A stretch of 64,000 nt of DNA from an uncultured virus (IMG/VR IMGVR_UViG_3300032038_000056) (IMGVR_UViG_3300032038_000056), one strand, 5' to 3'; counted from the first letter of the stretch, positions 1 through 32,535 are shown. Made by a program: numbers and translations. The notes: a model not told the origin generated them from the sequence alone.

Positions 1-548
1 ACATACGCCTTCAGTTCGAGTAATGCTGTACCAGAGGTCATGTCGATGTTCTGAATACCCGTAGAGGGATCGAACACCTCTCCGTCATAGACGTAGACGA
101 AGGAGATTCCGTACTGGTTCTCAACGGATGCCTGTGCGCCTGTGATGGCCAGATCGACATCGGTAGCCTTCGCACCTTCTGTCTGGGTGAGCGTAACGGT
201 TATGGTTGCGGCCTCGACTGCACCATACCCTGAATCCGCATCTGCGACCGAGAATGCACTGCCTTCGTACTTGAAGTACACACTTCCGTCAGAAAGCGCA
301 GAACCGTCCTTCGCAAGACCAGAGAGGGTAACGTTAGTACCGTTGTTGCTGGTATTGACCGAATACTGTCCAGCAAGGAAGTTCTGATAGGAACTGAGTT
401 CCACCGTGACTGCCTCGCCCGACATCTCGTTGTCCGTGTTCACTGCCGATCCATTGTAGGCAACGGCGAAACCGACACCCACAAGGGACACGATTGCGAT
501 AGTCAGCAGGGCGAACCCGCTGAACCCATACTTCTTCTTGTGTTCCAT
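1..548 (-). CDS. Secreted/surface adhesin-like protein (3' end runs off window)
   Basis: Manual translation MEHKKKYGFSGFALLTIAIVSLVGVGFAVAYNGSAVNTDN...; N-terminal signal helix followed by S/T/G/V-rich sequence; not in ORF track because no stop in window. Confidence 0.7.
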   Translation of the reverse strand, partial: MEHKKKYGFSGFALLTIAIVSLVGVGFAVAYNGSAVNTDNEMSGEAVTVELSSYQNFLAGQYSVNTSNNGTNVTLSGLAKDGSALSDGSVYFKYEGSAFSVADADSGYGAVEAATITVTLTQTEGAKATDVDLAITGAQASVENQYGISFVYVYDGEVFDPSTGIQNIDMTSGTALLELKAY

Positions 549-764: not shown

Positions 765-1058
765 TTATTCGGGTTCTTCCCCGAAACATGGGGTCAATGT
801 CAGATGCAACTGAACCATCGACACGAGTCTGATCTTACCTGTTTCCAAATCTTGCATAAAGGTGTTCCCGTACATCTCGAAATACCTCGTATGCCCGTCG
901 TTTGAGATCTCGATGATCTCTGGCGGTTCGGGTTCGGGAAGATTCGCAGGTGCCATCGAATCGTCAGACATATAGATCATAGAAGTAGAGAGAAGTACGG
1001 CAAGGTCAAGAACGATGAGTATAACGAGTATAGACCCTGTGTGCGACCGTAATCCCAT
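765..1058 (-). CDS. Small membrane-anchored hypothetical protein
   Basis: 97 aa, N-terminal TM helix, Pro/Glu linker; TATA-like element ~1080. Confidence 0.5.
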   Translation of the reverse strand: MGLRSHTGSILVILIVLDLAVLLSTSMIYMSDDSMAPANLPEPEPPEIIEISNDGHTRYFEMYGNTFMQDLETGKIRLVSMVQLHLTLTPCFGEEPE

Positions 1059-1115: not shown

Positions 1116-2090
1116 TCACTCCTCTCTTGAAAAGATGCTTCTACTGAGCCAAATTACCAATGACACAGCGATGATGAGGGGGATGACCGCAACGATTGCG
1201 ATTATCGAGGGGTTATCCACGCCCTGTATCCTGTCTCCTAAGACCTCGGTCGGTACGATGTAGTATTGGGGAGACATAGAATCAGACGTTATGGTTTCGC
1301 CATTGAGTTGATATGCAACAGTCATGTTCCCGTCCAACTGGACTACGCCACCCCCCATACTCTTTGTCTGGAAGTTCGTCACGGGTTCTGTAGCATTCGG
1401 ATTCCATACGACTGTCGTTCCGTTCTGGTATGCACTGCCAGGCACATAGAATGATACCCAACGTATATCATTCTCTCTCCAAGATATAGGGTACAGGTAA
1501 TGTCCGCCTCTGGCTATGTATCCCCCTTCGGGATCGTATCCGTATGAGAACAGTCTGACAGGAGATTCGATGTGTCCGCTGATATCCCCAGGATCATCCC
1601 TGTAGTCCAACTCCATCTGGCCTCCAGATATTGTCAGATCGATATGGAATGTGGAACTTGATGTGGGCTGTCTGAGATTTCCGAACCTCATTATGTGATC
1701 GGTTATGAAAGGCGTACCTTCAGAACTGTTTTCAGCGTAGAAATACAAACTCCAATCAATATAGGTACTACGCGGATGAACATAGATGAAACCAGCATCG
1801 CACAGTATCACTGGCATCATATAATCATCTTCAATTATCTCGGATATCGTATATGTCTCCCCGTTAAGAGTGAACTGACCAAAACTATCCCCGCTCACGG
1901 AGAACTCGACCGAATCCATATTGCTGACGAACGCATAGTCGTTCTTGTAGCCCTCAATGTAACCTGTTGCATTGTCGTAGGTCTCCTGTCTTGACTCGTG
2001 GAGGGTCATCACAGGAACGGCAAGTGTAGTCAGAAGTACGACACCTATGACCATACAGATTATGATGTTGATATACTTGTTCGTTTCCAT
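1116..2090 (-). CDS. Capsid-hairpin-derived surface/spike protein (324 aa)
   Basis: N helix VIGVVLLTTLAVPVM and C helix IVAVIPLIIAVSLVI match the two helices of the 35-kb MCPs; ~270 aa aromatic/beta-rich loop. Confidence 0.75.
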   Translation of the reverse strand: METNKYINIIICMVIGVVLLTTLAVPVMTLHESRQETYDNATGYIEGYKNDYAFVSNMDSVEFSVSGDSFGQFTLNGETYTISEIIEDDYMMPVILCDAGFIYVHPRSTYIDWSLYFYAENSSEGTPFITDHIMRFGNLRQPTSSSTFHIDLTISGGQMELDYRDDPGDISGHIESPVRLFSYGYDPEGGYIARGGHYLYPISWRENDIRWVSFYVPGSAYQNGTTVVWNPNATEPVTNFQTKSMGGGVVQLDGNMTVAYQLNGETITSDSMSPQYYIVPTEVLGDRIQGVDNPSIIAIVAVIPLIIAVSLVIWLSRSIFSREE

Positions 2091-2214
2091 TGTATGATAT
2101 ATTCCGCGCAGAGTATATAATGATTGAACTTTTGTGATATCGGCGTATATACATTTGTAAAGTTGAAAAAAGTAGGATGTGAAAAAGGTTTGGATGAATG
2201 GCTGACGGATTTCG

Positions 2215-4056
2215 TCAGTTCTTCATCTTTATGAATCTGATCGCACCAATCACCAGACCTACGGCCATGATCAGAGGGATCACGGAGATAATCGTTACCA
2301 GAGTTCCGCTGACACCTCCCCCACTGCCTCCCTCGGATCCGATTGTGCGGGGTGCAATGAATACATTGCATGTTCCCGTGTACTCTTCGCCCTGTGAGGT
2401 GTTATTCAGGTCCACTGTGATGGTGTTGTTGGAGTCCACATAGTTGAATCCGTATCTGGTGGTGTGGTTGTCCGTTACGACAGGCGTATCAAAATCATCG
2501 TTTGCAATGAGCAGACCCGTGCTCAGATATGCGATGATTTGCGCGTTGCTACCCTGCGGTCTCCTCTCGTTGATGAATCCGTATATGAGATTGTTACCCT
2601 CATAGTAGATTGGGTTCTGCCCATAGGAGGACACGTAATCCCCCTCGGTGTCGTACAGATATCCCGTGGGCGTAAGTTCTCCTCCGCCAGTATACTGGCC
2701 TATGACCATACTATACTGTAAGACAGGTTCAGTCGAATCTCTCGTATAATCATAGCCGATATTAAAATCCATAAGAGAACTTACCGAGTCCGAACGGAGG
2801 TTCACAGGCATATCGGTACAAGCGTACAGGATTTCGTTCCTTGCGCTGTTGTATATGATGAGATGGTCAGGAACGGAGAGAAGCACGCAACTTTCCGTGA
2901 TGCTCGTGATCTCCTCTGTCGTGTTCTCTGAGTCTCCATAGATCTTTATTCCCATTTTCAGCGTTCCGTTGTCGTTGTAGAATGTCAGGAAGCGCGACCC
3001 TGCATCTGCCCAAGTGGAGTCACCTTCAGTAACGTATACTGAGCGGATATCATACTTCTCTATCACATCATTGAACGCACTCATTCTCGGACCCTCGTTC
3101 GTGATCGAACTGGGAATCTCTGCGGTCGCTTTACCGCTCGCGGGAACGATGTATGAATCACAGGACATCGTGATCTCCCCCATATTGGATTCTGTCGCAG
3201 TGAAGGTCATACCATGCGGTTCAATACCTACTGCTGGCCGTCCGCCTATCTCGACATAGAAAGACGCGGTGAACTCCTTATGCCCATCCACTTCCGTCTG
3301 CCCGATGAGTTCTGTAGAGGATATACCTGTAAAAGCCATCTGATTAGTGGGGAAGATGGATGTCGCAGAACTCACGCCACCTTGATACCAGTATACACCA
3401 AATGACGAAAGAGCATAAACATCCTTGACATCCAGATATTTAACAGGGTATGAACCGTCTTCCCCAACAGAGATCATCGCCCAATCTCCCTCTGTATCTA
3501 CAACGAATCCGTCTTTTGCGGAAATGTCACGGGTTATCACACCTGAATTGTTGAACGTGACCGAGAACTCATCTGTATTTCCCGTTTTTCCTATTACAAG
3601 TGCAAAATTCGAGTCATCATCAGTGGATATGGTGTAAGGGGAATTAGGATCATTTGCGAACATTATCGTAAGTTCAATCAGTTGAGGACTTGTTTTGTGG
3701 TCCCTATATTGTATCAGAACCTCACTGTTGGCCAGAATCGTATATGTTTTGGTATCTGACGTGGTGATCGGTTCGGTCCTCACCACTGTGTCTCCGTTAT
3801 AGATTGTATATTCATACAGAGCAGTAGATGTGTGTGTTGCCATCCTCCTCATCTCATACCTCTGTCCGTTGCTGAATATATCGGATATCTTGGTCATATT
3901 CAGTCCGTCATTGGTAAATTCGACCTCCTGTGTGGTCGATCCGCCTCCGCCAGATGTGTTGAGCGTGCTTGCGATTATGGGTGTGACCACACCAGCAATC
4001 AGCACCACTCCGACTACGAGGGAGACCACTAACATAGTTGTGTTCTTTATATCCAT
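2215..4056 (-). CDS. Capsid-hairpin-derived surface/spike protein with duplicated loop domain (613 aa)
   Basis: N helix VVGVVLIAGVVTPIIAS, C helix IISVIPLIMAVGLVIG; repeated TN(D/E)G..M, DTEGD and IVP/IAP motifs. Confidence 0.75.
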   Translation of the reverse strand: MDIKNTTMLVVSLVVGVVLIAGVVTPIIASTLNTSGGGGSTTQEVEFTNDGLNMTKISDIFSNGQRYEMRRMATHTSTALYEYTIYNGDTVVRTEPITTSDTKTYTILANSEVLIQYRDHKTSPQLIELTIMFANDPNSPYTISTDDDSNFALVIGKTGNTDEFSVTFNNSGVITRDISAKDGFVVDTEGDWAMISVGEDGSYPVKYLDVKDVYALSSFGVYWYQGGVSSATSIFPTNQMAFTGISSTELIGQTEVDGHKEFTASFYVEIGGRPAVGIEPHGMTFTATESNMGEITMSCDSYIVPASGKATAEIPSSITNEGPRMSAFNDVIEKYDIRSVYVTEGDSTWADAGSRFLTFYNDNGTLKMGIKIYGDSENTTEEITSITESCVLLSVPDHLIIYNSARNEILYACTDMPVNLRSDSVSSLMDFNIGYDYTRDSTEPVLQYSMVIGQYTGGGELTPTGYLYDTEGDYVSSYGQNPIYYEGNNLIYGFINERRPQGSNAQIIAYLSTGLLIANDDFDTPVVTDNHTTRYGFNYVDSNNTITVDLNNTSQGEEYTGTCNVFIAPRTIGSEGGSGGGVSGTLVTIISVIPLIMAVGLVIGAIRFIKMKN

Positions 4057-4133
4057 ACACTCAATATCACGTATGACATTTATAAAGGTATAAGTAATAC
4101 ATTCATATATATTTTAAAGAAAGACTTGAACGA

Positions 4134-6242
4134 TTACCTTCTTATGAGCATATAACCCAATATACCTACACCGACTATGATGAACAGCGGAAGCAATCTG
4201 AATATCGTGTTCATGAACAGATTGGTAGTATCCTTGACCTCCGAAGACACTATCAGATAACCCGAATACACCTCTGATACGGATCCGTCCGTCCAACTAC
4301 CCTCATAATCTATACCTCTGACCATACCTACATCCCCCGAACTTTGAGATAAGTTCTTATCCATATCCGTAGAGATGTAGGAAATCGTACCGAGGTTACT
4401 ATCTGGATACAATATCTCTGGAACTGGGCCCGACTTCCATACTCCGTTCAAGGTATAGCCTATATCCACCAGCCCTGCACCGTTGGTAACGACATTCTGC
4501 CTGTAGATTGCGGAATGCACGACAGAGGACTGTGATACATATGCGCCTGTTGTCATCACCATCTTCCCAGAGGGATTGAGATATACGTCCACGGTCATCG
4601 AACCGTCCGTCCAAGACAACACCTCTCCAGCCAAGGCCAGATCCACACCGTCCTCCGCATTCCCTATCAGCGTGCGTTCCACACCGTCAATGTAGTAGAT
4701 GTCCCCGTTGGCATAGAGGAATACCGCGCATCCGTGTCCGATTGCAACAGGGATACAATCGGGAACATAGGCGGGATTGCCTGTATCAACATCGTCTGCG
4801 ATGGTGTATGCGTGTGCATAAGGATACAACTCTACACCCTCAAAGGTATCGGAGGAGGATCCAAGGTAGAGAGAAGTGCCGTCCGAGTACCAGTATACCG
4901 TAGGAACAATCAGCATTATGTTGTAAAGTGTAGGGTCATACGCAGACCCCCCGATTGTCCGTGTATAGTTATATGGGTTGAGGATGTATGCAATCTCCCC
5001 CTTGACCACAGACAGTCTTGCTTCTCCTCCGTCATCCCCGTTCGGCCCGCTGGCAAGGTTGATAGCGGCATAATAGCACCCGAACGGCCCAATGCCTGTC
5101 TCCGTATCGAATGCCCAATAACTGTTGAGCGTTTTTCCAGTAGGCATAGTGCTTACGAGTTCTCCGTTGATAAGAACCTGTACGTCCGATACCGTTGCAC
5201 CGCCTTCGTTCATAATAATCTTGTACCCATATTGCGCGGATGATGTTGAGTTGGGTATCACATATGCCAGCCTTGTACCCGCATTGTTCGCACCAGCCAC
5301 GTCCTGATCGGCAGCGTATGAGAACACTCCCGCATTGGCATTGGCACGCCAACTTCCTCCTGTGGCCAGCAATCTGATACCTGTGTTGCAGTAGAATACA
5401 TCATTGATTCCCTGTCCAGCAGTGGATGCGTTACCCACCGTGAGAGGTGTTCCCCAAGAGTCGGATCCGAGATAGATTGTAGTGATCATTTTGGAATTGG
5501 TAGACGGGATGGTTACGGTAGAGGACAGGGTATTCACAATATCATCGTATGGGTGTCCTCCGAGGGTATTCCCCGCGCTCATCACACGGTTGTTGAAGGA
5601 CATATCCCCGACGTATTCATTCAGATTTCCCCAAGAGTTTTCCAAGAAAAGACAGCCAGGAGTAGAATTGTTCCGTGATGTCTGATATGCTGATGTGGTG
5701 AACCCCGTATCAATCGGAGCAGTCTTACCGACATATCCGTTGCCCATCATATACTGGGTATCCGTATTGCCCAACACAGCCGTACACATCATCTCATATA
5801 GTGATTGCTGGTAATGATTCCACAGTTGGTATGTCCCATTGAGATTATCGGTATTGTTCGCCAGAGCCATCAGTCTGAAATCGTCCATAGTGGTGGAAAC
5901 AGTAGGGGATCTTCCCGCTTGAGATACAAGCACCCCGTCATTGTTGAACGCTTCATACACTCCGATCCCGATTGCCCCCGCCACTCCGCTGGTCGGAGGC
6001 ACATATTTTGCATAGTCCGTCTGCACACCATCCGTATCTATTACGTAATGCCCGTCTCCGTAAGATATGGATAAGAGATGGTTCTGCCCATCTGGGTATG
6101 CGAACCCTATGCCTTCATTGTAATAATTCTTGTTCCCCTCAAGACCTATCGTATCAGACAGTCCAGGCACCAGTGCGCTCAATGTGAACAACAATACGAT
6201 TGTGATCGCTGATACCGTCATGAAAAGGGATTTTGCATTCAT
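4134..6242 (-). CDS. Capsid-hairpin-derived spike protein with C-type-lectin (FGE/Mtd-like) tail-fibre domain (702 aa)
   Basis: Terminal helices LSALVPGL and FRLLPLFIIVG; IGVYEA, LENSWGNLNEYVGD and GGSW...AG.F...GTRLAY motifs typical of CLec-fold fibre domains. Confidence 0.7.
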   Translation of the reverse strand: MNAKSLFMTVSAITIVLLFTLSALVPGLSDTIGLEGNKNYYNEGIGFAYPDGQNHLLSISYGDGHYVIDTDGVQTDYAKYVPPTSGVAGAIGIGVYEAFNNDGVLVSQAGRSPTVSTTMDDFRLMALANNTDNLNGTYQLWNHYQQSLYEMMCTAVLGNTDTQYMMGNGYVGKTAPIDTGFTTSAYQTSRNNSTPGCLFLENSWGNLNEYVGDMSFNNRVMSAGNTLGGHPYDDIVNTLSSTVTIPSTNSKMITTIYLGSDSWGTPLTVGNASTAGQGINDVFYCNTGIRLLATGGSWRANANAGVFSYAADQDVAGANNAGTRLAYVIPNSTSSAQYGYKIIMNEGGATVSDVQVLINGELVSTMPTGKTLNSYWAFDTETGIGPFGCYYAAINLASGPNGDDGGEARLSVVKGEIAYILNPYNYTRTIGGSAYDPTLYNIMLIVPTVYWYSDGTSLYLGSSSDTFEGVELYPYAHAYTIADDVDTGNPAYVPDCIPVAIGHGCAVFLYANGDIYYIDGVERTLIGNAEDGVDLALAGEVLSWTDGSMTVDVYLNPSGKMVMTTGAYVSQSSVVHSAIYRQNVVTNGAGLVDIGYTLNGVWKSGPVPEILYPDSNLGTISYISTDMDKNLSQSSGDVGMVRGIDYEGSWTDGSVSEVYSGYLIVSSEVKDTTNLFMNTIFRLLPLFIIVGVGILGYMLIRR

Positions 6243-6306
6243 CGTTACAGAATAGGAATAAGTAGTTTATAAAAATGTTTTTTGAAAAGGTTTAGAAAGT
6301 GTCGTA

Positions 6307-9300
6307 TCACTTGTATCTGCCTATGAATGCCCTTACCACGAAGATCATTATGCCAGCCAATACAACGATAGGGATTACCCATAACAGCGACATAAGAGAA
6401 GTATTCTCCACGGTCTCGGTAGCATTCACGCTCTTGGGAAGAATAATGCTGGTACAGGATGCGGTGCTGTCCGATCCGTACCCGATATCCACGCCCGACA
6501 AGAGATACGCACCATCATATTCCGATTCCTCTGTGATGGCGGTCGCATCTCCGAGAGTGATGCCCGACATAGTGAACGGGGTCATGGAGTTCATCGTTCC
6601 GCTCGCACCGATTATTCCGTCATCGGTCATAGCATAGCCGAGTATCGGAGTGCTCTCGGTAACGTATGCGGTATCGTTGAGCAGTATGTATTTTCCGTCA
6701 CCCTTGAAGAATATCGAGGTGTAACTTATCTCGTAATCCGTTCCGTCCTTCTCTACGGCCATCACTCCGTTGGAGAACGTCAGAATCACCAGATCATCCG
6801 TCCAGACCAGAGGTTCGGTCAGATCCTCGGAATAGAGCACCAGCGCATTCTCGTTCTGATCCGTGACCATCGAACAGAGCATCCAGTCGCTTCCGCCAAC
6901 CAGATACGTGTATGTGGTATCCGAGATCTGCGGGGATTGAATGCTCCTCACAATCGGGGATGCCAGAGGTATAGAGCGGGTAGACATCACTCCCATCTGT
7001 GTAGTCTGTGTGGGGAGTATTTTTATTGCAGAAGGCGTAAAGTTTGCAGTGGTATTAAAAGTAGTGCCTTTTCCATCTCCCATCTCTCCGTACCGTCCAT
7101 CACCACAACCATAAAGGTCTCCTCCAACGGTGATTCCAAACGTATTATTATCGCTACATACTACTTTTGTAAGAGTTTGCGTTTCAAAACGATGTGTGAA
7201 CTCTGTTTTTGGAGTTTGCCCTGCAATTCCATGTTGGTAAGTTGTGTTACTTCCACACCCGTATAACTCACCACTATCAGTGAGTACCCATGTATCAGTT
7301 GGACAGCACGCCCCATCTACTATTATCTTATCTGACATACGTTGTGTGAAGGAGTTTACAGTTTTACCAGAACCGCTCTCCCCATTTCCTTGCTGACCAT
7401 ATCTGTTCTCTCCACAACCATATAATTTGCCATCGGTTGTTATGACCCATGTAGTTTTTTGAGAAGCCATAACTTTTGAAACGCTTTCACCACTTAGACG
7501 TTGTGTAAATGTTAGTACGTGTGTAGTAGTTCCATCTCCTAAATTTCCCCATGCGTTTTGCCCGCATCCATAAAGTTCCCCATTGTCTGTAATCGCCCAT
7601 ATTGCCATACCCCCCAATACAATATCTGTAATTGTTTTATCAGAGAGTTGTTGTGTGAAGGTCAGCACATCTGTTTTATCACCCGTACCTAAGGATCCTG
7701 TTGCATTACTGCCACTTCCGTATATCTTTCCATCAGTCGTGAGTACCCATGTCAATGTTGGACCGCATACTACTTTAGATATAGTTTCCCCAGATAGGCG
7801 TTGTGTGAAGGTCAGTATATCTGCGGTTGTACCGCTACCCTGACCTGTTCCTCTCCCGCATCCATAAAGTTCCCCATTGTCTGTAATCGCCCACGTGGTT
7901 TGTTTTGAACAAAATACATCAGATATTACTTTATCAGGTAAACGTTGTGTGAAGGTCAGGACATCTGCGGTAGCACCATCTCCCTGCTGTCCATATAAAT
8001 TCCACCCGCACCCAAACAATTTACCATCTGTTGTCACCGCCCATGTCGTATCTCCTGAACATTTTATTTTTGAAACGTTTTCTCCTACTAATCTATGCGT
8101 AAAAGAGAGCACATTTGTTGTAGTTCCGTTCCCTTGCTGTCCATAATTATTAAAACCTGTTCCAAATAAAGTACCATCTGTGGTAAGAACCCATGTACTA
8201 GTATCACCTAGTGCTATATCTTTTACGATTAATTTTTCATATTTTGCTAAAAAGGTCATTGAACCATTGACCGTACCAGAGCCCTGATCTATATTCCACC
8301 CTGTGAAGTAATATCCTTGAGGGAGTGTTGCTGTAACGGGTGTCTCTCCAGAAATCGTGACGATATTATCAGATACAGTATATTGTGTTCCGATCAACAC
8401 ATCTGGTATGGAATACGTACTGACATCACCTGGGGATTCTGCTGTAAAAGTAATGGTTACAGGGGCTTGTATGAAATTCGCAATAAAGGTCATCGCACCA
8501 CCCACAGTTCCAGATACATTGACGGGAGTCCAATGACTCCATGAATATCCAGAACTGGGTGTCGCGGTAACTGTTGTGGATCCGATTGTGATGGTGTTGT
8601 CAGAAATAGTGTATGCAGTACCGAAGTCCACCGTGACCGAAGGAACATCAACAGTACCGTGTCCGTCCGTAGCGAATGATATAAGATACTGATCAAGTGT
8701 CCATACCGCTGTAAGCGTGTGGTTCTCGCCTATGCTCACGATGGTCTGTGAGGTGATCGGATTGTCATTGGCATCGACCCAACCTCCGAAGATGTGTCCT
8801 GTGTATTCGGGTACAGGAAGATCCCCGTAAGCACTGCCGAACGTAACGGTCTTGGAAGAGGGTGATACGGATCCTCCGTCAGCATCGAATGTGACCGTGT
8901 ACTGTCCCGCTGTCCACTTCGCATACAGGAAGATGTTGCCCGCACTTTCGACTGTATCCGTGCTGACGATCTGCGTTGTGTACTGCTCATCGCTGAACCA
9001 TCCATCGAATGAATATCCGTACTTCACAGGTACAGGGAGTTCCCCGTATGTCAGATCCTTAACGACCGTCTTACTCTCTGGTGATACTGTCGCACCCGTT
9101 CCCGCTACGAAATAGACGGTAGGCGAAGGATTATTGATCTTGATGGTGCCTGGCAGTGCATTGTCCCACTGCATATTGTATGTGTCGCTCACATTTCCCT
9201 CTATGAGCGATTCACCGTCATTCGTAAGCGTGATCGTCTTCTTTATACCGTCATCCTGTGCCGTTCCGATCACAGGAACAAGTACGGACGTTGTGAGAAT

Positions 9301-9348
9301 GACCATCACGATCACGGTGGCCATCGTCATAAGGGTAGTGTTCTTCAT
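6307..9348 (-). CDS. Capsid-hairpin-derived spike protein with Listeria-Bacteroides (InlB B) repeats and RCC1-like beta-propeller (1013 aa)
   Basis: Start moved to MKNTT; helices TTSVLVPVIG and LLWVIPIVVLAG; YGxLPVP..GY.F.GW repeats; ~7-8 TWxxTxDGxLYGCGxNxxGQxG repeats. Confidence 0.8.
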   Translation of the reverse strand: MKNTTLMTMATVIVMVILTTSVLVPVIGTAQDDGIKKTITLTNDGESLIEGNVSDTYNMQWDNALPGTIKINNPSPTVYFVAGTGATVSPESKTVVKDLTYGELPVPVKYGYSFDGWFSDEQYTTQIVSTDTVESAGNIFLYAKWTAGQYTVTFDADGGSVSPSSKTVTFGSAYGDLPVPEYTGHIFGGWVDANDNPITSQTIVSIGENHTLTAVWTLDQYLISFATDGHGTVDVPSVTVDFGTAYTISDNTITIGSTTVTATPSSGYSWSHWTPVNVSGTVGGAMTFIANFIQAPVTITFTAESPGDVSTYSIPDVLIGTQYTVSDNIVTISGETPVTATLPQGYYFTGWNIDQGSGTVNGSMTFLAKYEKLIVKDIALGDTSTWVLTTDGTLFGTGFNNYGQQGNGTTTNVLSFTHRLVGENVSKIKCSGDTTWAVTTDGKLFGCGWNLYGQQGDGATADVLTFTQRLPDKVISDVFCSKQTTWAITDNGELYGCGRGTGQGSGTTADILTFTQRLSGETISKVVCGPTLTWVLTTDGKIYGSGSNATGSLGTGDKTDVLTFTQQLSDKTITDIVLGGMAIWAITDNGELYGCGQNAWGNLGDGTTTHVLTFTQRLSGESVSKVMASQKTTWVITTDGKLYGCGENRYGQQGNGESGSGKTVNSFTQRMSDKIIVDGACCPTDTWVLTDSGELYGCGSNTTYQHGIAGQTPKTEFTHRFETQTLTKVVCSDNNTFGITVGGDLYGCGDGRYGEMGDGKGTTFNTTANFTPSAIKILPTQTTQMGVMSTRSIPLASPIVRSIQSPQISDTTYTYLVGGSDWMLCSMVTDQNENALVLYSEDLTEPLVWTDDLVILTFSNGVMAVEKDGTDYEISYTSIFFKGDGKYILLNDTAYVTESTPILGYAMTDDGIIGASGTMNSMTPFTMSGITLGDATAITEESEYDGAYLLSGVDIGYGSDSTASCTSIILPKSVNATETVENTSLMSLLWVIPIVVLAGIMIFVVRAFIGRYK

Positions 9349-9424: not shown

Positions 9425-10939
9425 TCAATCAAAAGTCAAACGTGTTTGACCGTGCTTTGCCCTCTTCTTTATCAGAGGTTCGTAAGCGGGATTGATCTCG
9501 ATGCCTATCCCGTTAATGTCGTGGTCATAGCAGTATTCCAATACAGTACCAGAACCGCAGAATGGATCCAATACTATACCGCCTTCTGGACAGCACGCAT
9601 CAATCGGCCTCTCCACCAACTTCTTTGGGAACATCGCGACGTGTTCCAGATTGGATCCCGTATTGCATATCGACCAAGTTGTACGGACATTTCTCATTCC
9701 GTCGCTGTTCTTCAGTATATCATCGGTCTCTACGGTCACATCGGTCATACCCTTGTCTATCTCGGAATACTCCTCGGAATCATCGCTGACCTTATCTCTG
9801 ATCAGCAGCCAATCCTCGATAGAGGGATATGAGAATCCGTCATCCGTTCTGAACCAATGCTCGGCTGTCGTAAGCGAGATCTCTGTCCCAGAAACAATCT
9901 CCTTTGGATTGATGCGGGATTTCATAAAAGCGGTGAAGGCCGCCTTATCTGGCAGGTTGTAACGCTTGTATACTACACCGTTCCCCCTGTTCTGGTGCAT
10001 CCCCTGTCTGACGCTCGCCTCCATATCGTCATCCTTCCATTTGGAAGTGTTGTCGAACCATACTGTCCTACAGTTACGGCCTTCGGGATTCCCCCATCTC
10101 TTCCAATTAGGGTCATTGTGCTGTAACTCATAAGCGTTGGATCCGCGTATCACGTTCTTGGTCTCAAGGGTATTATGCCTTGCGCGTTTCGCTCTGGCTA
10201 TGCTCTCTTGCTTGACCTCTTCCAACTGCTGTTTGAAATAGTATTTGGGGTTCTTTACGAAGAAAAAGAACTTCTCAAAATCCACTGTGAACCTGTCCTT
10301 GACGGAACTCGGCATCGCACTGTCCTTCTGCCAGATTATCTCGTTCCTCAGAATCCATCCGTGGTCGGCCATCGCTATTGCGAACCTTGACGGTATCTGG
10401 ACGAGGGTCTTCTGCGGGAACTGGGTGCGGGATAATCCCTCTCTGACCTTTTTCGCCGATATAATGGAATCAAGAGAACGCTGAACGCCTTTCGTGTCTC
10501 CTGTGAATCCGCTGGTCGTAGCGTAGGTATCGCCTAGATTGACCCAACACGCACCTGTCGGTTTGAGCACCCTTTTGACCTCATCGAATATCATCATCAG
10601 ATGGTCGATATACTCCAACGGGGAGGGTTCAAGCCCCAACTGCCCTTTCCACGCACCGCACTTTGAACAATATTGCGTAACGGTAGGGTGGCCTCTGTTA
10701 TTGCCTTCCCCATCCCTGTTCGCACCGACGCTCGCATTGGGATTTACGCCTCCTCTGGCCGACTCCTTGTGATCCGTCCATTCGTGTTCACAATCCGAAT
10801 TACCCCATACCACGGGATCCGTACCGTAATCCCTCAATGCCCAATACGGCGGAGAGGTAACGCATACGTCCACGGATTCATCTGGCATCTCTCTTAGGAC
10901 ATCCAGACAATTCCCTATGATGATCTTCTGTTCGCTCAA
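9425..10939 (-). CDS. DNA N4-C/N6-A methyltransferase (beta class)
   Basis: TSPPY catalytic motif near N-terminus, VLDPFCGSGT SAM motif near C-terminus, WILRNEIIWQK. Confidence 0.9.
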   Translation of the reverse strand: MSEQKIIIGNCLDVLREMPDESVDVCVTSPPYWALRDYGTDPVVWGNSDCEHEWTDHKESARGGVNPNASVGANRDGEGNNRGHPTVTQYCSKCGAWKGQLGLEPSPLEYIDHLMMIFDEVKRVLKPTGACWVNLGDTYATTSGFTGDTKGVQRSLDSIISAKKVREGLSRTQFPQKTLVQIPSRFAIAMADHGWILRNEIIWQKDSAMPSSVKDRFTVDFEKFFFFVKNPKYYFKQQLEEVKQESIARAKRARHNTLETKNVIRGSNAYELQHNDPNWKRWGNPEGRNCRTVWFDNTSKWKDDDMEASVRQGMHQNRGNGVVYKRYNLPDKAAFTAFMKSRINPKEIVSGTEISLTTAEHWFRTDDGFSYPSIEDWLLIRDKVSDDSEEYSEIDKGMTDVTVETDDILKNSDGMRNVRTTWSICNTGSNLEHVAMFPKKLVERPIDACCPEGGIVLDPFCGSGTVLEYCYDHDINGIGIEINPAYEPLIKKRAKHGQTRLTFD

Positions 10940-11136
10940 GGCTCTCCCACCTGATCCAGAGCATCCCTCTCATCTTTGAAATGACGGTAATTCAGACCGC
11001 CGAATCCGTTGAGGACTATCATCTCCATAAGAGATTTGCCAGCAAGCGTATCGGCATCATTGAAATCTATGTCATCCCAATCATTCTCTGGAACTTCTGT
11101 CTCAATCACTGTCGTAAGTACGGTATATATCTTCAT
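10936..11136 (-). CDS. Hypothetical protein
   Basis: 66 aa, GAGGTG RBS, ATGA overlap with MTase. Confidence 0.55.
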   Translation of the reverse strand: MKIYTVLTTVIETEVPENDWDDIDFNDADTLAGKSLMEMIVLNGFGGLNYRHFKDERDALDQVGEP

Positions 11137-11145
11137 CAGAACACC

Positions 11146-11862
11146 TCATATGAATCTGTCCATTGTTGTCTGTATCTTTCTCGGCTGAGGAATGGGCGTG
11201 AACCCCAGACCTTCGTTACATATCTCTACGATGTGCCGACAAAGTTTCTCTGGGATCCTTGCACGTTCCATAGCATTCTTCAATCTCTGGGATCCGTTCC
11301 TCGACCCTCTGGGTGCTTTCTCGTGGCACGTATCCCCGTAGTTACAAGGGGGTATGAACTTCGGGTCAGGATGGTTGGTCCAGATGTCCGTAGGTTTCAT
11401 ACGGAAATCTCCGTATTTGCAGTAGGTCACTGTATAACGGGTCATGAAACCAGACCTCTCTCTCTCCCTCATGAAATCCATCTTCCTCATCCCCGCTCTT
11501 GGATTCTCGATGAAGAAATACTTGGGATTCAATTCCTCGATCAATTCCATCACGTGTTCGTTGGTGGCATCACAAAACTTGGCATAATCCGACTTGGGTG
11601 CAAGCGTGTCCCCCTTCTTCTCACGATGATGGAATATGGCAGATACAGAATAACTTGTGCAATCGGGCGATGCCCAGATCACATCTGGTACGCCCTTGCA
11701 TAGTTTCACAATATCTTCGGCTGTGAGTTTGGATATATCCGCATAGAGTGAGATGTCCTTGAATTTCTTATCCCACTCTACGGAATAGGTCTCCCACCCA
11801 TCCCTCTCGAACTCACATCCGACAGACCTCGTTCCCGCAAACAGTTCCAACATCTTCGGCAT
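11146..11862 (-). CDS. DNA cytosine-C5 methyltransferase-like protein (short phage type)
   Basis: MLELFAG (motif I), WASPDC (catalytic PC-like), FFIENP (motif VI); start moved to MPKML. Confidence 0.85.
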   Translation of the reverse strand: MPKMLELFAGTRSVGCEFERDGWETYSVEWDKKFKDISLYADISKLTAEDIVKLCKGVPDVIWASPDCTSYSVSAIFHHREKKGDTLAPKSDYAKFCDATNEHVMELIEELNPKYFFIENPRAGMRKMDFMRERERSGFMTRYTVTYCKYGDFRMKPTDIWTNHPDPKFIPPCNYGDTCHEKAPRGSRNGSQRLKNAMERARIPEKLCRHIVEICNEGLGFTPIPQPRKIQTTMDRFI

Positions 11863-11940
11863 TTCCCTACCTCTTGTTTTTGATGATGGCATATATTGAA
11901 AAATATATAAATGTATTTACAGGAACATTTACAAGATTAC

Positions 11941-12123
11941 TTACGCTCTCCTGTTCCAGCACGATGCCAGATAGGAAATCCTATCAGCCTTCTTACCAGG
12001 AACGTTCGATATCATTGACACCATCCCGCACGACTTACACTTCACACCTGTTGAGAGATGCACCAGCGTAAGATCCGTCGAACCGCAGAACGGACACGGA
12101 CTGAACTCGTCCATATCACTCAT
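11941..12123 (-). CDS. Lar-family restriction-alleviation-like Zn-ribbon protein
   Basis: PCPFCGS...V.C.SCG...WNRR pattern. Confidence 0.7.
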   Translation of the reverse strand: MSDMDEFSPCPFCGSTDLTLVHLSTGVKCKSCGMVSMISNVPGKKADRISYLASCWNRRA

Positions 12124-12256
12124 TGGTACGCCTCCTTATACAGACCGTGACCACATCGCCCTCTTTCGCATCGATCATAGCCAGTTCCTTGGTGAGTCTG
12201 AACCCCAGACTGCCACCTGTCCTTATGATCTTCTTATCAACTACAATTCTGTCCAT
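12116..12256 (-). CDS. AbrB/MazE/SpoVT-type DNA-binding protein (46 aa)
   Basis: Manual translation MDRIVVDKKIIRTGGSLGFRLTKELAMIDAKEGDVVTVCIRRRTNE; below ORF-track cutoff. Confidence 0.7.
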   Translation of the reverse strand: MDRIVVDKKIIRTGGSLGFRLTKELAMIDAKEGDVVTVCIRRRTNE

Positions 12257-12578
12257 TGTATACCTCCATTGTGTCTTTCATCAATTTTTCAATCGACTCC
12301 AATCTCTCGGCAATCTCCCATAGGAACGACTCCGCGATTGTCATTGGTTCTCCTTTCGTTTTCGTTATGTAGAACTTATCGAACACCGAGACTATCATAT
12401 CCCCCACGGAAACCTCTCCGATTTCCTTGGATTCGGTCAAAGAGAACATCTCTGTCAATATTTCCTTTCCATCCACCTTTCTGACGAACAGATCCTTGTC
12501 CTTCAGCATATCCATACAGAGTTCCGAACCGTCGTAGATCAGATACTCATATGCCGTCATACGTCTTCTCCACATCAT
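12237..12578 (-). CDS. Hypothetical protein
   Basis: Overlapping operon arrangement; start moved to MMWRRR. Confidence 0.55.
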   Translation of the reverse strand: MMWRRRMTAYEYLIYDGSELCMDMLKDKDLFVRKVDGKEILTEMFSLTESKEIGEVSVGDMIVSVFDKFYITKTKGEPMTIAESFLWEIAERLESIEKLMKDTMEVYNGQNCS

Positions 12579-12877
12579 CTTCTCGCCATATTCCTTATAT
12601 CGAATTTGTCCAGTATCGCCATCTCCAAAAGCCACATCTTCATATCTATCTCCTTGATGTCTTGGAAATAATCTATCGCTCTCCCCGTCTTCCTGTCGAA
12701 TATTAGATAGCACGTATCCCCGCTATCCTTCTTCTCTCCTAAGTAGATTGAGTAATAATCCCCTAGGCGTATGCCATTATCGGTAAACGTATCCAGATTC
12801 TTCTGTAACCCTCTCGACATACCTGTACGGTATATGCGCCACGCATCGTTCTCTATGATCAATTCCCTATCATTCAT
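12575..12877 (-). CDS. Hypothetical protein
   Basis: ATGA overlaps on both sides; start MNDRE. Confidence 0.55.
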   Translation of the reverse strand: MNDRELIIENDAWRIYRTGMSRGLQKNLDTFTDNGIRLGDYYSIYLGEKKDSGDTCYLIFDRKTGRAIDYFQDIKEIDMKMWLLEMAILDKFDIRNMARR

Positions 12878-13788
12878 TGTCTTACCCTGTTCAGTAGCCT
12901 CATAGCACACGAGGACACGACCTTACGAACCGCTTTCATATCCACCGATTTCAAATCGGCCAGAGCATCGAAGGAACAATCCGTCCACCACTCCCTCCAT
13001 ATGTATTTGAGGAAATCGGGGGTCATCTTCATATTCCATTCGATCCCTCTGTCCGTAGTGAACTTATGGAACTCCTTGGATACGAACTCCTGTGTCATAC
13101 TGACCTCGACAGCCGTTTCCTCTGGCAGTACCTCCTTCTCACCCTTATTCTTGGAATGCGCCTTTGACTTGAACGTTTCTCTGACGATCTTACCCCAAGT
13201 CCTTCTGCCGTATGGGTTGATGTAATCGTAGTTCTTGACCACGATGCCTTCCCCTTGTTCCCCCTCTTTCAAAAGGTACAGGTCGGAATCCATCGCCTTA
13301 TACAGATCCTCTATGGAAGGGTTCTCGAACCTTGCGATGTCTGGAATGACGGTGATATCCCTTGACTGAGGTCTCATAACGTCAGCAACCAGATCCACCA
13401 CCTCCGTATATTCCAGCCACTTCGCCTTCTCATCATCCCATATATCGAAGATGTACCATTTGTTCCACGCATCGTCATAATAGGACTTGATCGTGTGGGG
13501 GGTCAGATATTCCCCGTACACCCTCAGATTGGGATGTGCCTTGACGAACTCGGCAATCTCTGGATGCTTATCCACGAAATGCCAGAACCCTGTTGTATCG
13601 TATCCCTCTGAGAGAAGTTGATTGCGTGATGCAATCGCTACTCTGTCCAGATCCTTGTCGTAGTATACACAATGGTTCGCACCGTCGATCTTGGGGAACA
13701 CCCAGACTGTCCCATTCAGAAGACCGTCAAGTTCGTTTCCGCATAATCCGATGCGTTCCACATGCTGATACCTTACAAAATCACTCAT
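12874..13788 (-). CDS. RNA ligase (Rnl2-like nucleotidyltransferase)
   Basis: Motif I PKIDGAN, VYGE, IFDI, GEGIVVK, GKIV; start MSDFVRY. Confidence 0.8.
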   Translation of the reverse strand: MSDFVRYQHVERIGLCGNELDGLLNGTVWVFPKIDGANHCVYYDKDLDRVAIASRNQLLSEGYDTTGFWHFVDKHPEIAEFVKAHPNLRVYGEYLTPHTIKSYYDDAWNKWYIFDIWDDEKAKWLEYTEVVDLVADVMRPQSRDITVIPDIARFENPSIEDLYKAMDSDLYLLKEGEQGEGIVVKNYDYINPYGRRTWGKIVRETFKSKAHSKNKGEKEVLPEETAVEVSMTQEFVSKEFHKFTTDRGIEWNMKMTPDFLKYIWREWWTDCSFDALADLKSVDMKAVRKVVSSCAMRLLNRVRQ

Positions 13789-14098
13789 TCCCGTCACCTC
13801 TTTTCGTTTTGTCCTTGCCACCTTCATTCGAGAGTTTATCTATGACCTCTTTCCTTTTCTGTTCTCCCTCTGCCATACAGTCCTCCGTCCACTTCACGAA
13901 CATCCAATAGAAACTGAGAAAACAGTCTGGGCATATACGCGCATTGTATTTGAGATTCCTTCCTCTCGCTCTTACCTTCAAGGAGACCATCGAATGGTGA
14001 GGTTCGTCCGTATAGGATGTCCTCTTATCCACATCGAGGTTTATCAGAGCACCGCACTGCTCGCATATCTCACCTTCCAATACGACCTTTCTTCTCAT
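13781..14098 (-). CDS. Zn-finger hypothetical protein
   Basis: CEQCG ... ICPDC. Confidence 0.6.
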   Translation of the reverse strand: MRRKVVLEGEICEQCGALINLDVDKRTSYTDEPHHSMVSLKVRARGRNLKYNARICPDCFLSFYWMFVKWTEDCMAEGEQKRKEVIDKLSNEGGKDKTKRGDGNE

Positions 14099-14316
14099 TC
14101 AGCACCGCCCTTCCATAACATCTCATTCAGCATATCCCTCAGAACCAGCATACTGCCCTCATCCAGCATTATGCTGTGAGTTCCCTCATCCTCGGTCTCG
14201 CACCATATCTCCACGCATCCCTTGTGGAACATAGCGGACCACTTATCATAATCCCCATTCGTGAGGATTCCTTTCAGCATATTCTCAGACATCGAGACTC
14301 CTGTGAAGCGATGCAC
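14095..14316 (-). CDS. Hypothetical protein
   Basis: Operon context with ATGA overlap; start uncertain. Confidence 0.45.
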   Translation of the reverse strand: MHRFTGVSMSENMLKGILTNGDYDKWSAMFHKGCVEIWCETEDEGTHSIMLDEGSMLVLRDMLNEMLWKGGAE

Positions 14317-14584
14317 CGCAGAACGGACAGAACTTCCACTTCTCTCTCCTGTGTGCCACCTTATTGTTCTCGTCCAGATAAGGCATCAGAGCGTCATATG
14401 ACAAGACCTCCTTAGTGCCGAAGTCAATCACAGGATCGGCATAATTCACATTCTCGAACGCACGACAACAGAACCCTGTGTAAGCGCGGGACTCGATGAG
14501 GTCTATGCTCTCCCCAGTCAATCCGTGTCCTCTGAGGGCATCCTTGCTGTCGATTGTAGCACCGTTGAATCTGATGGTCATCAT
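14285..14584 (-). CDS. Hypothetical protein with C-terminal CPFCG Zn ribbon
   Basis: FCC ... KFCPFCG. Confidence 0.55.
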   Translation of the reverse strand: MMTIRFNGATIDSKDALRGHGLTGESIDLIESRAYTGFCCRAFENVNYADPVIDFGTKEVLSYDALMPYLDENNKVAHRREKWKFCPFCGASLHRSLDV

Positions 14585-14898
14585 TCGGCCATCTCCCTCA
14601 CCGCCAGAGCGGTTATCTTGCCTACGGTCAGAGAAACGGAGAAGTCGCCGTTATCGTAACTGTCCTTGTCGGGATACAGACGCAGTTTCCTCCCCAGTGA
14701 TGACTCGAAAATGGGTGCGTATGCCTTGATGTGCGGTGTCGCAAAACAGAATAGGTTTCTGTTGCCACGGAAGATGCTCATCTTCAACCCGTTCTCGTCC
14801 TCGAACTCCAACACTTCCGTGGGAGTCAGTTCCTTCGCAAGCGTTTCGATGTCCTCTACGCCGAAATCGTCCTTTCCGAATACTTTTGTCACTATCAT
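14581..14898 (-). CDS. Hypothetical protein
   Basis: First gene after TATA element at ~14932-14940. Confidence 0.55.
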   Translation of the reverse strand: MIVTKVFGKDDFGVEDIETLAKELTPTEVLEFEDENGLKMSIFRGNRNLFCFATPHIKAYAPIFESSLGRKLRLYPDKDSYDNGDFSVSLTVGKITALAVREMAE

Positions 14899-14966
14899 AT
14901 AGTTTTCACCGTGAATAGTATTTATTTTTGTATATATAAAAGTATTGAAAATGCTACAATACCGCC

Positions 14967-16121
14967 TTACCTGTTCCCCTTTGCCCTATTGTGCGTCTTG
15001 CACAGCATCTGACAGTTGGACTCGTCCGTGGATCCCCCTCTGCTCCACGCTGATACGTGATCTGCATCCATCTCTCCTATCTCGTATATCCTATGGACTC
15101 CAGCGACCTCGCATAAAGGACAGTTGGATGCGCCAGAGTCTCTTGCGTCCTTGGTCTGTTTCTCATAGACCTTGGTCTTCGTCCTGTTATCAAAGATCCT
15201 TATGTTCAGCAAAGAAGCGTCCTTACATCCCCCCAGAACATACTCGAATATCCCTCTGAGCGAATAGATGCTGGAGTCCGCCATAAGATCGTAGACCTTA
15301 CTCTCAACCTCATCGACATCGTATGCGTTGTTATGGTAGGTCTCGTACAGCCTTCCCCAATCCAGTCCGCACATCAGTTTCCTTGTGATTTTGAATACCG
15401 ATCCCGCCCAACGTATGACCGACTCGAAGTAATCAGAGATTTCGGAGATATCCTCTTCGTTACGATGTACCGACAGATACCCTTGAACATCCCCCTTGCT
15501 CACCCACTTCAATGCGGTCTCAAGTATCTCCTGTCTGTTCGGATTGCCTTTGACGTATGCTTTCCAGCGTGGCATGTTGCCGTTCTTGGGGTTAGAGAAC
15601 TTCTTACGGCACGCATTGATGAACGGCCCGTGATAGGATGCGTTCAGACGCTCTTGGGGTGTGAGTTCCACCCCGACCATATTGATCGTGGTGAACCATT
15701 CTTGTATCTCTGAAGGAGCCCCTCTGCATACGTACACGGTAAGCGGTGTGTCCAGTATCTTCGACCTGTCATCCTCGTCCATCGTACTGAACAGTCTTCT
15801 GACCCCGTTCCTCTCGATGGAGAACGGATCCGATTCGGTAACGAATCTTGCGAACGAAGTGATCCTCTGCTGACCATCCAGCACCTCGTATTCATCCCCG
15901 TTCTCGACGAAATACATCAAACCGAGAGGGTATCCTTTCAAAAGGGATTCGACCACGGCGACATCCTTCCCCTTGTCCTTATAGACATAGTTGCGCTGAT
16001 ATTCGGGCTGTATAACCAATTTTCCATTCATTCCCCTAAGACCTTTCTCTTCGGCCTTATCGTAGCAGAATCCCTTACAGATGTCCGCTACCGTCCATTC
16101 GGTATGAAGTTCTGTTTTCAT
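14967..16121 (-). CDS. DUF262 (GmrSD/ParB-like) + C-terminal HNH restriction endonuclease
   Basis: [20 protein letters not shown]...[13 protein letters not shown]...[13 protein letters not shown]. Confidence 0.88.
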
Positions 16122-17224: not shown

Positions 17225-17534
17225 AGAACTCCCTCTTTGCTCTGATCCTCTCATTGATGGTCTTCGTCGAACTGTCAGATAGGAATGTGATCTCAAGCAC
17301 TCTCCCGCTCTCATCCACAACCTTTCCGTCAATGACGCGAACACCGTAGTAGAAATTGTTGAATCCTGTGTTCCAAGTCTTGAAACACTTGTCCTTGTCC
17401 ACCTTCTTCGAGAATCCCATCAAGGCAACGTCCTTCGCACATTTCTTATCATCCTTCCAAAGAGAAGTCGTTGCCACGACATATTTAGAGTTCCTAAGCA
17501 GTTTCTTGATGTCATTCATAGTTGGGTTGTTCAT
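17214..17534 (-). CDS. Hypothetical protein
   Basis: 106 aa with own TATA promoter and GAGGT RBS. Confidence 0.55.
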   Translation of the reverse strand: MNNPTMNDIKKLLRNSKYVVATTSLWKDDKKCAKDVALMGFSKKVDKDKCFKTWNTGFNNFYYGVRVIDGKVVDESGRVLEITFLSDSSTKTINERIRAKREFYGN

Positions 17535-17561
17535 TGTTATTACCTCGAATTTGTATCGGCA

Positions 17562-17593
17562 AATGTATATATAAATATATTGAAAAAGAATGA
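17562..17593 (-). promoter_or_regulatory. Archaeal TATA promoter, copy 1 of 32-bp repeat
   Basis: aatgtatatataaatatattgaaaaagaatga (TTTATATA on minus strand), 31/32 identical to 18233-18264. Confidence 0.7.
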
Positions 17594-17602
17594 GGGGGAT
17601 AT

Positions 17603-18205: not shown

Positions 18206-18232
18206 CGTTTTTACCTCGTAAATGTATCAATG

Positions 18233-18264: not shown

Positions 18265-18281
18265 AAAAGAAAAAGAGGACA

Positions 18282-32526: not shown

Positions 32527-32535
32527 TATCTCACC

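Follow-up and report, generated by a model that had tools for sequence, protein, structure and literature searches.

The window analysed here is a stretch of 64,000 nucleotides (nt) of DNA from an uncultured virus (IMG/VR IMGVR_UViG_3300032038_000056). Between positions 1,116 and 9,348 it carries four consecutive genes for large proteins that start and end with a hydrophobic helix, and these two helices resemble the two helices of much smaller hairpin proteins encoded at 35 kb, which are the putative major capsid proteins (MCPs) of the virus. The four large products, here called split-hairpin proteins, are the following:

1116-2090, minus strand: 324-aa split-hairpin protein; helix 1 at aa 3-29 (2004-2084) and helix 2 at aa 294-323 (1122-1211) in an AlphaFold2 (AF2) model, with a beta-rich ectodomain in between
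2215-4056, minus strand: 613-aa split-hairpin protein; helix-1 match at aa 1-34 (3955-4056), helix-2 match at aa 586-607 (2236-2301)
4134-6242, minus strand: 702-aa split-hairpin protein; helix 1 at aa 3-31 (6150-6236), helix 2 at aa 675-701 (4140-4220)
6307-9348, minus strand: 1013-aa split-hairpin protein; helix-1 match at 9256-9324, helix-2 match at 6316-6417

The initial annotation of this region had listed a proline-containing motif at either end of four consecutive gene products, and all open reading frames (ORFs) and motifs were found as quoted. The N-terminal motifs are TLAVPVM, GVVTPII, SALVPGL and SVLVPVI; the C-terminal ones, AVIPLII, SVIPLIM, RLLPLFI and WVIPIVV, are followed by basic tails. 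In all four proteins the first proline is residue 25 or 26 from the initial methionine, as it is in the small proteins. The 1013-aa ORF is counted from an ATG and stays open up to a TTG at 9432; the ATG is favoured because the N-terminus aligns with that of its relatives from there. An AT-rich spacer of 64-124 nt lies ahead of each of the four genes, with a TATA-like element about 25-35 nt before each ATG. As far as can be read from the sequence, these elements fit separate archaeal-type promoters, in line with the annotation's view of apparently separately promoted genes.

Class III signal peptides have a short basic leader ending in [KR]-G/A right before the hydrophobic stretch. Such a signal, as in archaeal type IV pilins, was considered for the four proteins and rejected, as the N-termini METNKYIN, MDIKNTTM, MNAKSLFM and MKNTTLMT do not contain the motif.

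The small proteins with which the termini were compared are encoded on the same strand:

34936-35145, minus strand: 69-aa two-helix hairpin, putative MCP paralog (coat hidden Markov model; DNA repeat shared with the 75-aa gene)
35215-35442, minus strand: 75-aa two-helix hairpin, putative MCP (coat hidden Markov model; relatives)
35469-35711, minus strand: 80-aa divergent hairpin paralog without the second proline

All three (69, 75 and 80 aa) have two hydrophobic stretches, and the same layout is seen in a narrower coat alignment (A1) and in a profile of 43 diverse small proteins (A3). A coat hidden Markov model (HMM) from 108 database relatives of the small protein was run on the 520 window ORFs of at least 40 aa. 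The 1013-aa protein was the next best match after the three small proteins (E = 5.3e-7, HMM positions 10-32 and 39-73). It was followed by the 613-aa protein (E = 3.6e-6, positions 1-35 and 47-68), after which ranked a 641-aa protein (28667-30592) that matched with its C-terminus only. Two matching stretches were also found in the 324-aa protein (E = 0.0079) and in the 702-aa protein (E = 0.029). The matches are colinear in all four split-hairpin proteins, the N-terminus falling on positions 1-35 and the C-terminus on positions 39-73, and the other membrane ORFs of the window score lower.

When the N- and the C-terminus were each given a profile of their own, built exclusively from 95 long forms of the database, every one of the eight termini of the four proteins scored higher than all of its 1000 composition-preserving shuffles. 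The N-termini reached 21.0-38.7 bits versus shuffle maxima of at most 14.3, and the C-termini 10.6-36.9 bits; the thinnest case was the C-terminus of the 702-aa protein, with 11.8 bits versus 11.7 for the best shuffle. Control termini were unremarkable (the N-terminus of the 641-aa protein, the C-termini of a 210-aa and a 675-aa protein, and both termini of a 427-aa protein), and the N-terminus of the 675-aa protein was marginal (2/1000). Shuffling is an easy null, because it breaks the block structure of a membrane helix, and a database-wide search served as the stronger control. To this end, the coat profile (A1) was read without a word index against 1.84 billion (1.84e9) representative proteins. 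This search returned 129 hits at E ≤ 1e-3, with 17 at E ≤ 1e-10, which comprised 49 small proteins (53-116 aa) and 80 proteins of 176-476 aa, and nothing unrelated. All 80 long hits had two matched stretches; 76 passed strict colinearity (N-terminus to helix 1, C-terminus to helix 2), and the remaining four were also colinear and missed thresholds only. A word-indexed search for longer proteins among 5.8 billion sequences gave E-values down to 5e-8, and each of the 11 sequences examined carried both coat-like termini, starting for example with MDVKTIAVSVVSIAIACLFAVTLLIPVIADS and ending with NALLNLIPLLVIVGIILGTVGFIVLRK.

Alignment of the coat family with the family of the 324-aa protein by hhalign gave a probability of 98.3% (E = 2e-14) for helix 2. 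For the 324-aa protein, the predicted local distance difference test (pLDDT) score of the AF2 model is 68.6. All top structural matches of the model are helical hairpins, spanning model residues 1-324. SSV19 VP1 is the second of them (Z 7.9, root-mean-square deviation 2.6 Å, 68/69 residues, 19% identity). What the match shows is only that, in the model, the terminal helices lie against each other as an antiparallel hairpin. A complex prediction with three 75-aa copies and the 324-aa protein scored 0.00 and carries no weight in either direction. As no DNA repeat of at least 40 nt joins the coat genes to the four genes in the window, the likeness is one at the protein level and not the result of recent gene conversion.

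Could the terminal helices be generic signal or transmembrane segments that resemble the small proteins by compositional chance? They are hydrophobic and low in complexity, and two of the four proteins match the coat HMM weakly. Yet a search of 1.84e9 proteins that yields only small hairpins and two-stretch long forms (129 hits) is not what chance would give, nor is the success of eight out of eight termini against 1000 shuffles each; moreover, scores near zero were obtained for the remaining membrane proteins of the window and for 11 of 12 from His1. Chance, to which we attach a negligible probability, is refuted for the family as a whole, and the margin is thin for the C-terminus of the 702-aa protein alone. 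The termini of the large proteins are thus almost certainly homologous to the coat hairpin helices, as the initial annotation had claimed: both ends match the small proteins of the window, with the 324- and 702-aa proteins as the weak members. The two helices are colinear with those of the MCP, and the coat loop between them is replaced by about 263-947 aa. The short loop and the small size of an alpha-hairpin MCP are not found in the four large proteins, which are derivatives of the MCP family and not ordinary members.

The assignment of the small proteins as spindle-virus coat proteins draws on known MCPs and on gene context. Aligned with His1 VP21 by hhalign, the profile A3 gave a probability of 85.3% (E = 5.9e-6, 62 columns), which gives moderate support for MCP homology. 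Against 177,635 sequences of the PDB, A3 found SSV19 VP1 (7xdi) first, with E = 0.0055 as compared to 0.3 for the next match and with both prolines aligned. The coat HMM gave VP21 17.8 bits and each of the other 11 His1 membrane proteins at most 3.0 bits. The Pfam family His1_capsid (PF25665) matched 15 of 49 database representatives, all below its 27-bit cut-off (best 23.2 bits, E = 6.9e-5). The small genes have the following neighbours:

37701-38525, minus strand: P-loop ATPase of the spindle-virus morphogenesis type (B251/pI-Zot-like; Pfam Zot, phrogs)
31243-34832, minus strand: genes for three conserved membrane proteins (427, 90 and 675 aa), located downstream of the coat genes and syntenic in the contigs L001 and L004

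The ATPase gene lies 2 kb upstream of the coat genes. Its product matches Pfam Zot above the cut-off (E = 1.2e-5), phrog_5484 (annotated as DnaA-like; E = 1.3e-13), which we take to be the fusellovirus B251 family, and phrog_1675 (M13 protein I; E = 9.6e-4). The three membrane-protein genes probably belong to the morphogenetic module as well. Among the 103 window ORFs scanned, no tailed-phage terminase, portal or HK97-type capsid family was found. A coat hairpin together with this ATPase is the signature module of spindle viruses according to two preprints, in which the ATPase is most like phage pI. With the VP21 alignment, SSV19 VP1 as top PDB match and the adjacent ATPase, the earlier assignment of the 35-kb proteins as spindle-virus MCPs is supported, and judged from their sequences they are probably coat proteins. 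The virus is probably of archaeal type and spindle-shaped.

The large proteins share more than their helices. Searches with phmmer linked the 324-, 613- and 1013-aa proteins to database long forms. The 324-aa protein aligned with them, and over its whole length with P0237; the 613-aa protein aligned at both termini and over the last ~150 ectodomain residues; and the 1013-aa protein matched a 476-aa RCC1-propeller protein with the same termini at E = 4.5e-112. The profile of the 324-aa family (A2) aligned by hhalign with aa 554-702 of the 702-aa protein (probability 89.9%), aa 856-1012 of the 1013-aa protein (95.3%) and aa 1-53 of the 613-aa protein (96.3%). When the 324-aa protein and 50 long forms were aligned (51 proteins, mean column identity 21%), the two prolines were the only invariant columns, and an Asn, an Ile and the Gly of PLLVIVG were nearly invariant; the coat family, too, is conserved at these prolines and this glycine. 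Two further elements are common to the large proteins: helix 1 is followed by a strand (T-F-x-N-x-G), and helix 2 is directly preceded by a membrane-proximal domain of about 100-150 aa, the last strand of which is Y-x-[IV]-V-P-x-E-V-like. This shared core speaks for one paralogous family with domain accretion and not for independent loop insertions; the family probably goes back to one coat-gene derivative of about 300 aa, in which modules were added or exchanged later. The earlier description of large domains replacing the MCP loop therefore holds with regard to the retained helices and the large inserts, but not in the sense of unrelated domains inserted independently.

The architecture recurs in related contigs. 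In L001, a syntenic IMG/VR contig, the coat and morphogenesis genes are immediately followed by genes for a 301-aa and a 552-aa protein (the latter with BspA leucine-rich repeats) that have the same termini, and L009 encodes a 360-aa protein of the same architecture (E = 3e-9). The coat proteins of the seven loci compared for co-variation with the termini of the display proteins are nearly identical. A small conserved membrane protein (97 and 92 aa) is encoded among the split-hairpin genes in the window (765-1058, minus strand) and in L001 (4718-4996).

The inserts between the helices look extracellular and receptor-binding in character, both by composition and by fold. The ectodomains contain 35 N-x-S/T sequons in 2411 residues versus 17 in 4675 residues of 13 cytoplasmic window proteins (Fisher p = 1e-6), an excess that is largely due to their richness in Asn, Ser and Thr. 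Their content of Lys and Arg is 3.6-5.2%, versus 11-25% in the cytoplasmic proteins. The 1013-aa ectodomain consists of Flg_new (Listeria-Bacteroides) repeats and an RCC1-like beta-propeller (Pfam), whose phrog relatives include tail proteins. A beta-prism lectin match at aa 288-379 of the 613-aa protein is weak (E = 9.4e-5, below the cut-off). With the model of the 324-aa protein, Foldseek found no match in the PDB at E ≤ 0.001, only weak galectin- and LamG-like rows. Taken together, composition and folds agree with the annotation's view of the inserts as receptor-binding domains, which are known here from sequence and models.

For the 702-aa protein the fold can be named more precisely. Its model (pLDDT 88.7, from 43 homologs) has a predicted ligand-binding domain of the C-type-lectin fold. 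In a Foldseek search of the PDB it matched TaqVP (5vf4), a variable protein of a diversity-generating retroelement (DGR), at E = 9.3e-6 and probability 1.00, with formylglycine-generating enzyme (FGE) and Mtd lower. A protein atlas had given leads below 0.9 to FGE-sulfatase clusters, which Foldseek bore out, and BFVD yielded 26 viral models at E ≤ 1e-3, of which many bear the name tail collar fibre protein and belong to gut phages. Residues ~283-332 resemble a DGR variable region, with a conserved scaffold (GG.W...AG...G.RLAYV) and ligand-facing positions that differ between distant homologs. They vary only there, as the stretch is constant among homologs of 64-95% identity. None of the seven direct-repeat families of at least 40 nt in the window involves 5250-5400, and no DGR template repeat was found; nor was there a reverse transcriptase among the window ORFs scanned, about 10 kb of the 74.6-kb contig lying outside the window. 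A role of the 702-aa protein as a DGR variable protein in this window was rejected on account of the missing template repeat and the constant variable-region-like stretch.

Other inserts occur in the database. Among 98 long-form relatives scanned with Pfam, three had a SASA (sialate-O-acetylesterase) domain, two RCC1 and one BspA leucine-rich repeats, and 90 matched no family. The SASA domain lies between two coat-like helices in P0134, P0136 and P0215. Such an insert recalls, by analogy, the receptor-destroying esterases of enveloped animal viruses.

In the SSV19 capsid, as described in PMC9351363, the VP1 loop is located at the outer face of the shell, and the termini are at its inner face. 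A domain inserted into the loop would therefore face outward. We propose, with a probability of roughly 60%, that the split-hairpin proteins anchor receptor-binding domains in the capsid via a hairpin derived from the coat protein. The coat would be built from the hydrophobic alpha-hairpin proteins of 69-75 aa, and the four genes would be paralogs derived from the coat protein that kept helix 1 and helix 2 at their ends. The outward loop would have been replaced by a conserved membrane-proximal beta domain and variable modules, namely a lectin-like domain, a C-type-lectin fold, and Flg_new repeats with an RCC1 propeller. Such a protein would enter the host membrane like the coat protein, with helix 1 retained, both ends inside and the insert outside. 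At assembly, both helices would pair as a coat-like hairpin and fill the place of a coat protein in the helical lattice or at its end, whereby the ectodomain would be anchored on the surface of the virion and might bind glycans or proteins of the host surface.

Two neighbouring genes of the window bear on the need for both helices:

28667-30592, minus strand: 641-aa protein whose N-terminus resembles an ordinary signal, with an InlB B-repeat domain and, of the two coat-like helices, only helix 2
30574-31206, minus strand: 210-aa protein with a coat-like helix 1 only; its gene shares 19 nt with the start of the 641-aa gene

An adjacent pair of this kind is kept in L004, where a helix-1-only protein (13517-14155) is followed by a protein with a signal peptide, InlB/Flg_new repeats and helix 2 only (14162-17488). 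One may speculate that the 210- and 641-aa proteins supply the helices of a hairpin in trans.

Alternatively, helix 1 may be a cleavable signal peptide that was inherited from a duplicated coat gene, leaving mature type I spikes held by helix 2 alone. The N-terminal layout would suit a signal peptide (charged residues first, then about 20 hydrophobic aa, a proline and small residues), the 641-aa protein does join a signal that is not coat-like to a coat-like helix 2, and SSV19 VP4 and B210 as well as His1 ORF26 and ORF27 are anchored at the C-terminus only. However, signal peptides normally drift, whereas the sequence and register of helix 1 (proline at 25-26) are kept in 80 database representatives whose ectodomains are only about 20% identical. 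The coat protein itself has the helix-1 motif and needs helix 1 for its hairpin, the N-termini are the stronger of the two ends (21-39 bits), and the 210-aa class retains helix 1 as its only hydrophobic segment. We therefore regard cleavage of helix 1 as unlikely.

The large proteins might also stay in the membrane of the infected cell and serve in cell adhesion, superinfection exclusion or the preparation of budding sites instead of becoming part of the virion. A topology with two anchors and large adhesin-like ectodomains would be compatible with this, and so would the record, in a metagenome-assembled genome (MAG) of Methanomethylophilaceae, of an InlB B-repeat protein of cellular type that carries an ordinary signal peptide and is homologous to the 702-aa ectodomain. 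The likeness to both coat helices would, however, be hard to explain without contact to the coat lattice; the L001 genes directly follow the coat and morphogenesis genes, and the ectodomain folds match modules of phage tail fibres. Residence in the cell membrane thus appears quite improbable, even more so than a cleaved helix 1.

Several findings nevertheless weigh against capsid anchoring by a coat-derived hairpin. As to the helices, the 641-aa protein has helix 2 only and the 210-aa protein helix 1 only, so a complete hairpin in a single chain is not obligatory, and the region after helix 1 (P-[IV]-[IV]-[AS], then a polar residue) would by eye also fit a signal-peptidase site. The 324- and 702-aa proteins are weak against the coat profile itself, and the match of the 324-aa model to SSV19 VP1 ties with generic and designed helical hairpins. 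In the family of the 702-aa protein both termini reach at least 8 bits in only 36 of 87 clusters (N-terminus 65/87, C-terminus 37/87); several of the N-terminal misses are truncated gene calls, and whole sub-lineages have a C-terminal anchor without the proline. The coat identity rests on matches below threshold: none of the three small proteins of the window matched His1_capsid at E ≤ 0.05, no match reached the curated gathering score, and the narrow profile A1 aligned with VP21 at a probability of only 15.7%. A bulky ectodomain can presumably not occupy every lattice position, and the proteins would have to be sparse in the wall or concentrated at its end. Finally, His1 ORF23, ORF26 and ORF27 do not have coat-like termini, scoring at most 3.2 bits per stretch and 0.8 bits for the whole protein with the coat and terminal profiles. 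As the anchored proteins of His1 lack such termini and SSV19 uses a three-helix bundle, the architecture is lineage-specific and not a general feature of spindle viruses.

Metagenomic reads gave a view of how the array varies. Words of the 8.2-kb region were shared by 18 sequencing runs from 13 studies, each with at most 0.18 of the sampled words and none of them an RNA run. In four runs from four studies (bovine, sheep and unspecified gut metagenome), contigs reaching 17 kb span the genes with an identity of about 85-95%. Inside the ectodomains, the run contigs have blocks of the same length but diverged sequence (e.g. 1571-1925), and the block 2648-2894 is replaced. In one contig (run X3), 3025 extra letters lie between 4005 and 4050, within the helix-1 coding part of the 613-aa gene. 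The position suggests that an extra cassette may have been gained by recombination at a conserved end. The array comprises at least four split-hairpin genes here, with apparent extra cassettes in relatives. In a more tentative extension of capsid anchoring, whose chances we place slightly short of even, the hairpin would be a portable capsid-anchoring module that brings whatever extracellular domain lies between its helices into the coat lattice, and the gene arrays would swap ectodomains by recombination at the helix-coding ends, possibly with the 210- and 641-aa proteins as a pair acting in trans.

The window represents most of a genome of about 75 kb, its own contig being 74,567 nt long with about 10 kb outside the window. 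Nearly all genes are on the minus strand, and there are no tRNA genes. For the 75-aa protein, 144 of 150 candidates were relatives at E ≤ 0.01, mostly from contigs of 60-75 kb, and none of these proteins has a Pfam family. By tblastn, neither the coat protein nor the ATPase matched any of 50,697 deposited phage and archaeal-virus records. Scans of IMG/VR with the ATPase and with the 613-aa protein gave no match; the scan with the coat protein matched one contig. No provirus was found in 185,579 species genomes, which gave only two chance transmembrane matches (Pedobacter, Bacillus).

The relatives occur in ruminant gut metagenomes, and the host is probably a member of the Methanomethylophilaceae. 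The sole pointer to this host is P0347, the homolog of the 702-aa ectodomain with an ordinary signal peptide, which is recorded in an NCBI MAG of Candidatus Methanomethylophilaceae; this record may be a binning artefact, which counts against the host assignment. The coat-protein relatives P0046 and P0058 lie on a 60.8-kb contig labelled as a Clostridiales bacterium MAG, probably a mis-binned virus.

Other features of the window are noted briefly. One of the few plus-strand genes (39511-40326) encodes a serine recombinase of the resolvase/invertase type, possibly an integrase. The minus strand from 9425 to 19055 holds a dense DNA-modification block with two N6/N4 methylases, a C5 methylase-like gene, an EcoRI-type adenine methylase, a GmrSD-N/HNH protein and an RNA ligase; another methylase-like gene is located at 44490-45326. 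The ORF at 3-548 (minus strand, running off the window) begins with MEHKKKYGFSGFALLTIAIV, that is, with a basic leader, a G and a hydrophobic stretch, loosely an archaeal prepilin-type signal; it had no match in Pfam or PHROGs. AT-rich upstream repeats (17532-17593/18203-18264 and 28064-28105/28505-28546) consist of a TTTATATATAC-like sequence followed by GAGGT and ATG on the minus strand ahead of neighbouring genes, and are probably promoters with ribosome-binding sites.

To our knowledge, the attachment of receptor-binding proteins to spindle coats made of tiny hydrophobic hairpins is known for SSV19 only, where it involves a three-helix bundle. A coat-derived split hairpin would, if correct, be a second and modular anchoring solution for spindle-shaped archaeal viruses and would make a non-icosahedral archaeal capsid the carrier of a natural display system. 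It would predict a structure in which the hairpin takes a lattice position with the domain outside, provide a sequence signature for finding the receptor-binding proteins of uncultured archaeal and spindle viruses, and suggest a scaffold for engineered display on spindle capsids. It concerns abundant, undescribed viruses of about 60-75 kb that probably infect methanogens of the ruminant gut, with relevance to methane emission. No description of coat helices flanking an ectodomain was found in the available text of the literature searched, which includes PMC9351363, PMC12934983, PMC12451623, PMC10791045, 10.1101/2025.02.15.638363 and 10.1101/2021.07.29.453957 and does not cover the 2023 methanogen-virus compendium (Nature Microbiology) or the supplement of PMC12934983.

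Compared with known systems, the small proteins have the layout of His1 VP21 and of fusellovirus VP1/VP3 (7xdi), with two hydrophobic helices, a conserved proline in each and a basic C-terminal tail. The corresponding motifs are VLVPII and IIPLLVIVG here, LLPTAF and LLPLLSVVG in VP21, and VLLPVI and LVPLF in SSV19 VP1. Tandem coat paralogs beside a B251/pI-like ATPase are likewise found in known spindle viruses. Known coat proteins are 73-84 aa long with a loop of about 10-15 aa, whereas the loop here comprises 263-947 aa, and the similarity lies below curated thresholds. The fold of the 702-aa ectodomain is that of the C-type-lectin modules of phage tail fibres and of DGR proteins (TaqVP 5vf4, Mtd 1yu1); unlike in those systems, the window has no template repeat and the module lies within a membrane hairpin, not on a tail fibre.

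In filamentous phages, the receptor-binding protein pIII is anchored by a coat-like hydrophobic helix beside the small pVIII subunits, and assembly takes place at the membrane with a pI-type ATPase, which is the basis of phage display. pIII differs in having a single C-terminal anchor, a bacterial host and unrelated sequences, so the parallel is one of analogy only. The transmembrane lectin (ConA-like) proteins of Thermococcales spindle viruses are similarly variable, modular and glycan-binding, have predicted transmembrane helices and are encoded among conserved core genes; in the available text of PMC12934983 they are not described as coat-like. According to the His1 annotation, ORF26 and ORF27 are of the same variable, membrane-anchored and glycan-binding type. 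A further parallel is SSV19 (PMC9351363), whose tailspike VP4 and adaptor B210 are large, glycosylated and receptor-binding; hydrophobic helices, on which VP1 stacks, fix them in the capsid. VP4 and B210 may thus serve as a working analogue of the proposed anchoring, with the difference that their anchor is a C-terminal Z-shaped three-helix bundle in one sevenfold tail, while the putative anchor here would be a hairpin derived from the coat, with one helix at either end of the protein.

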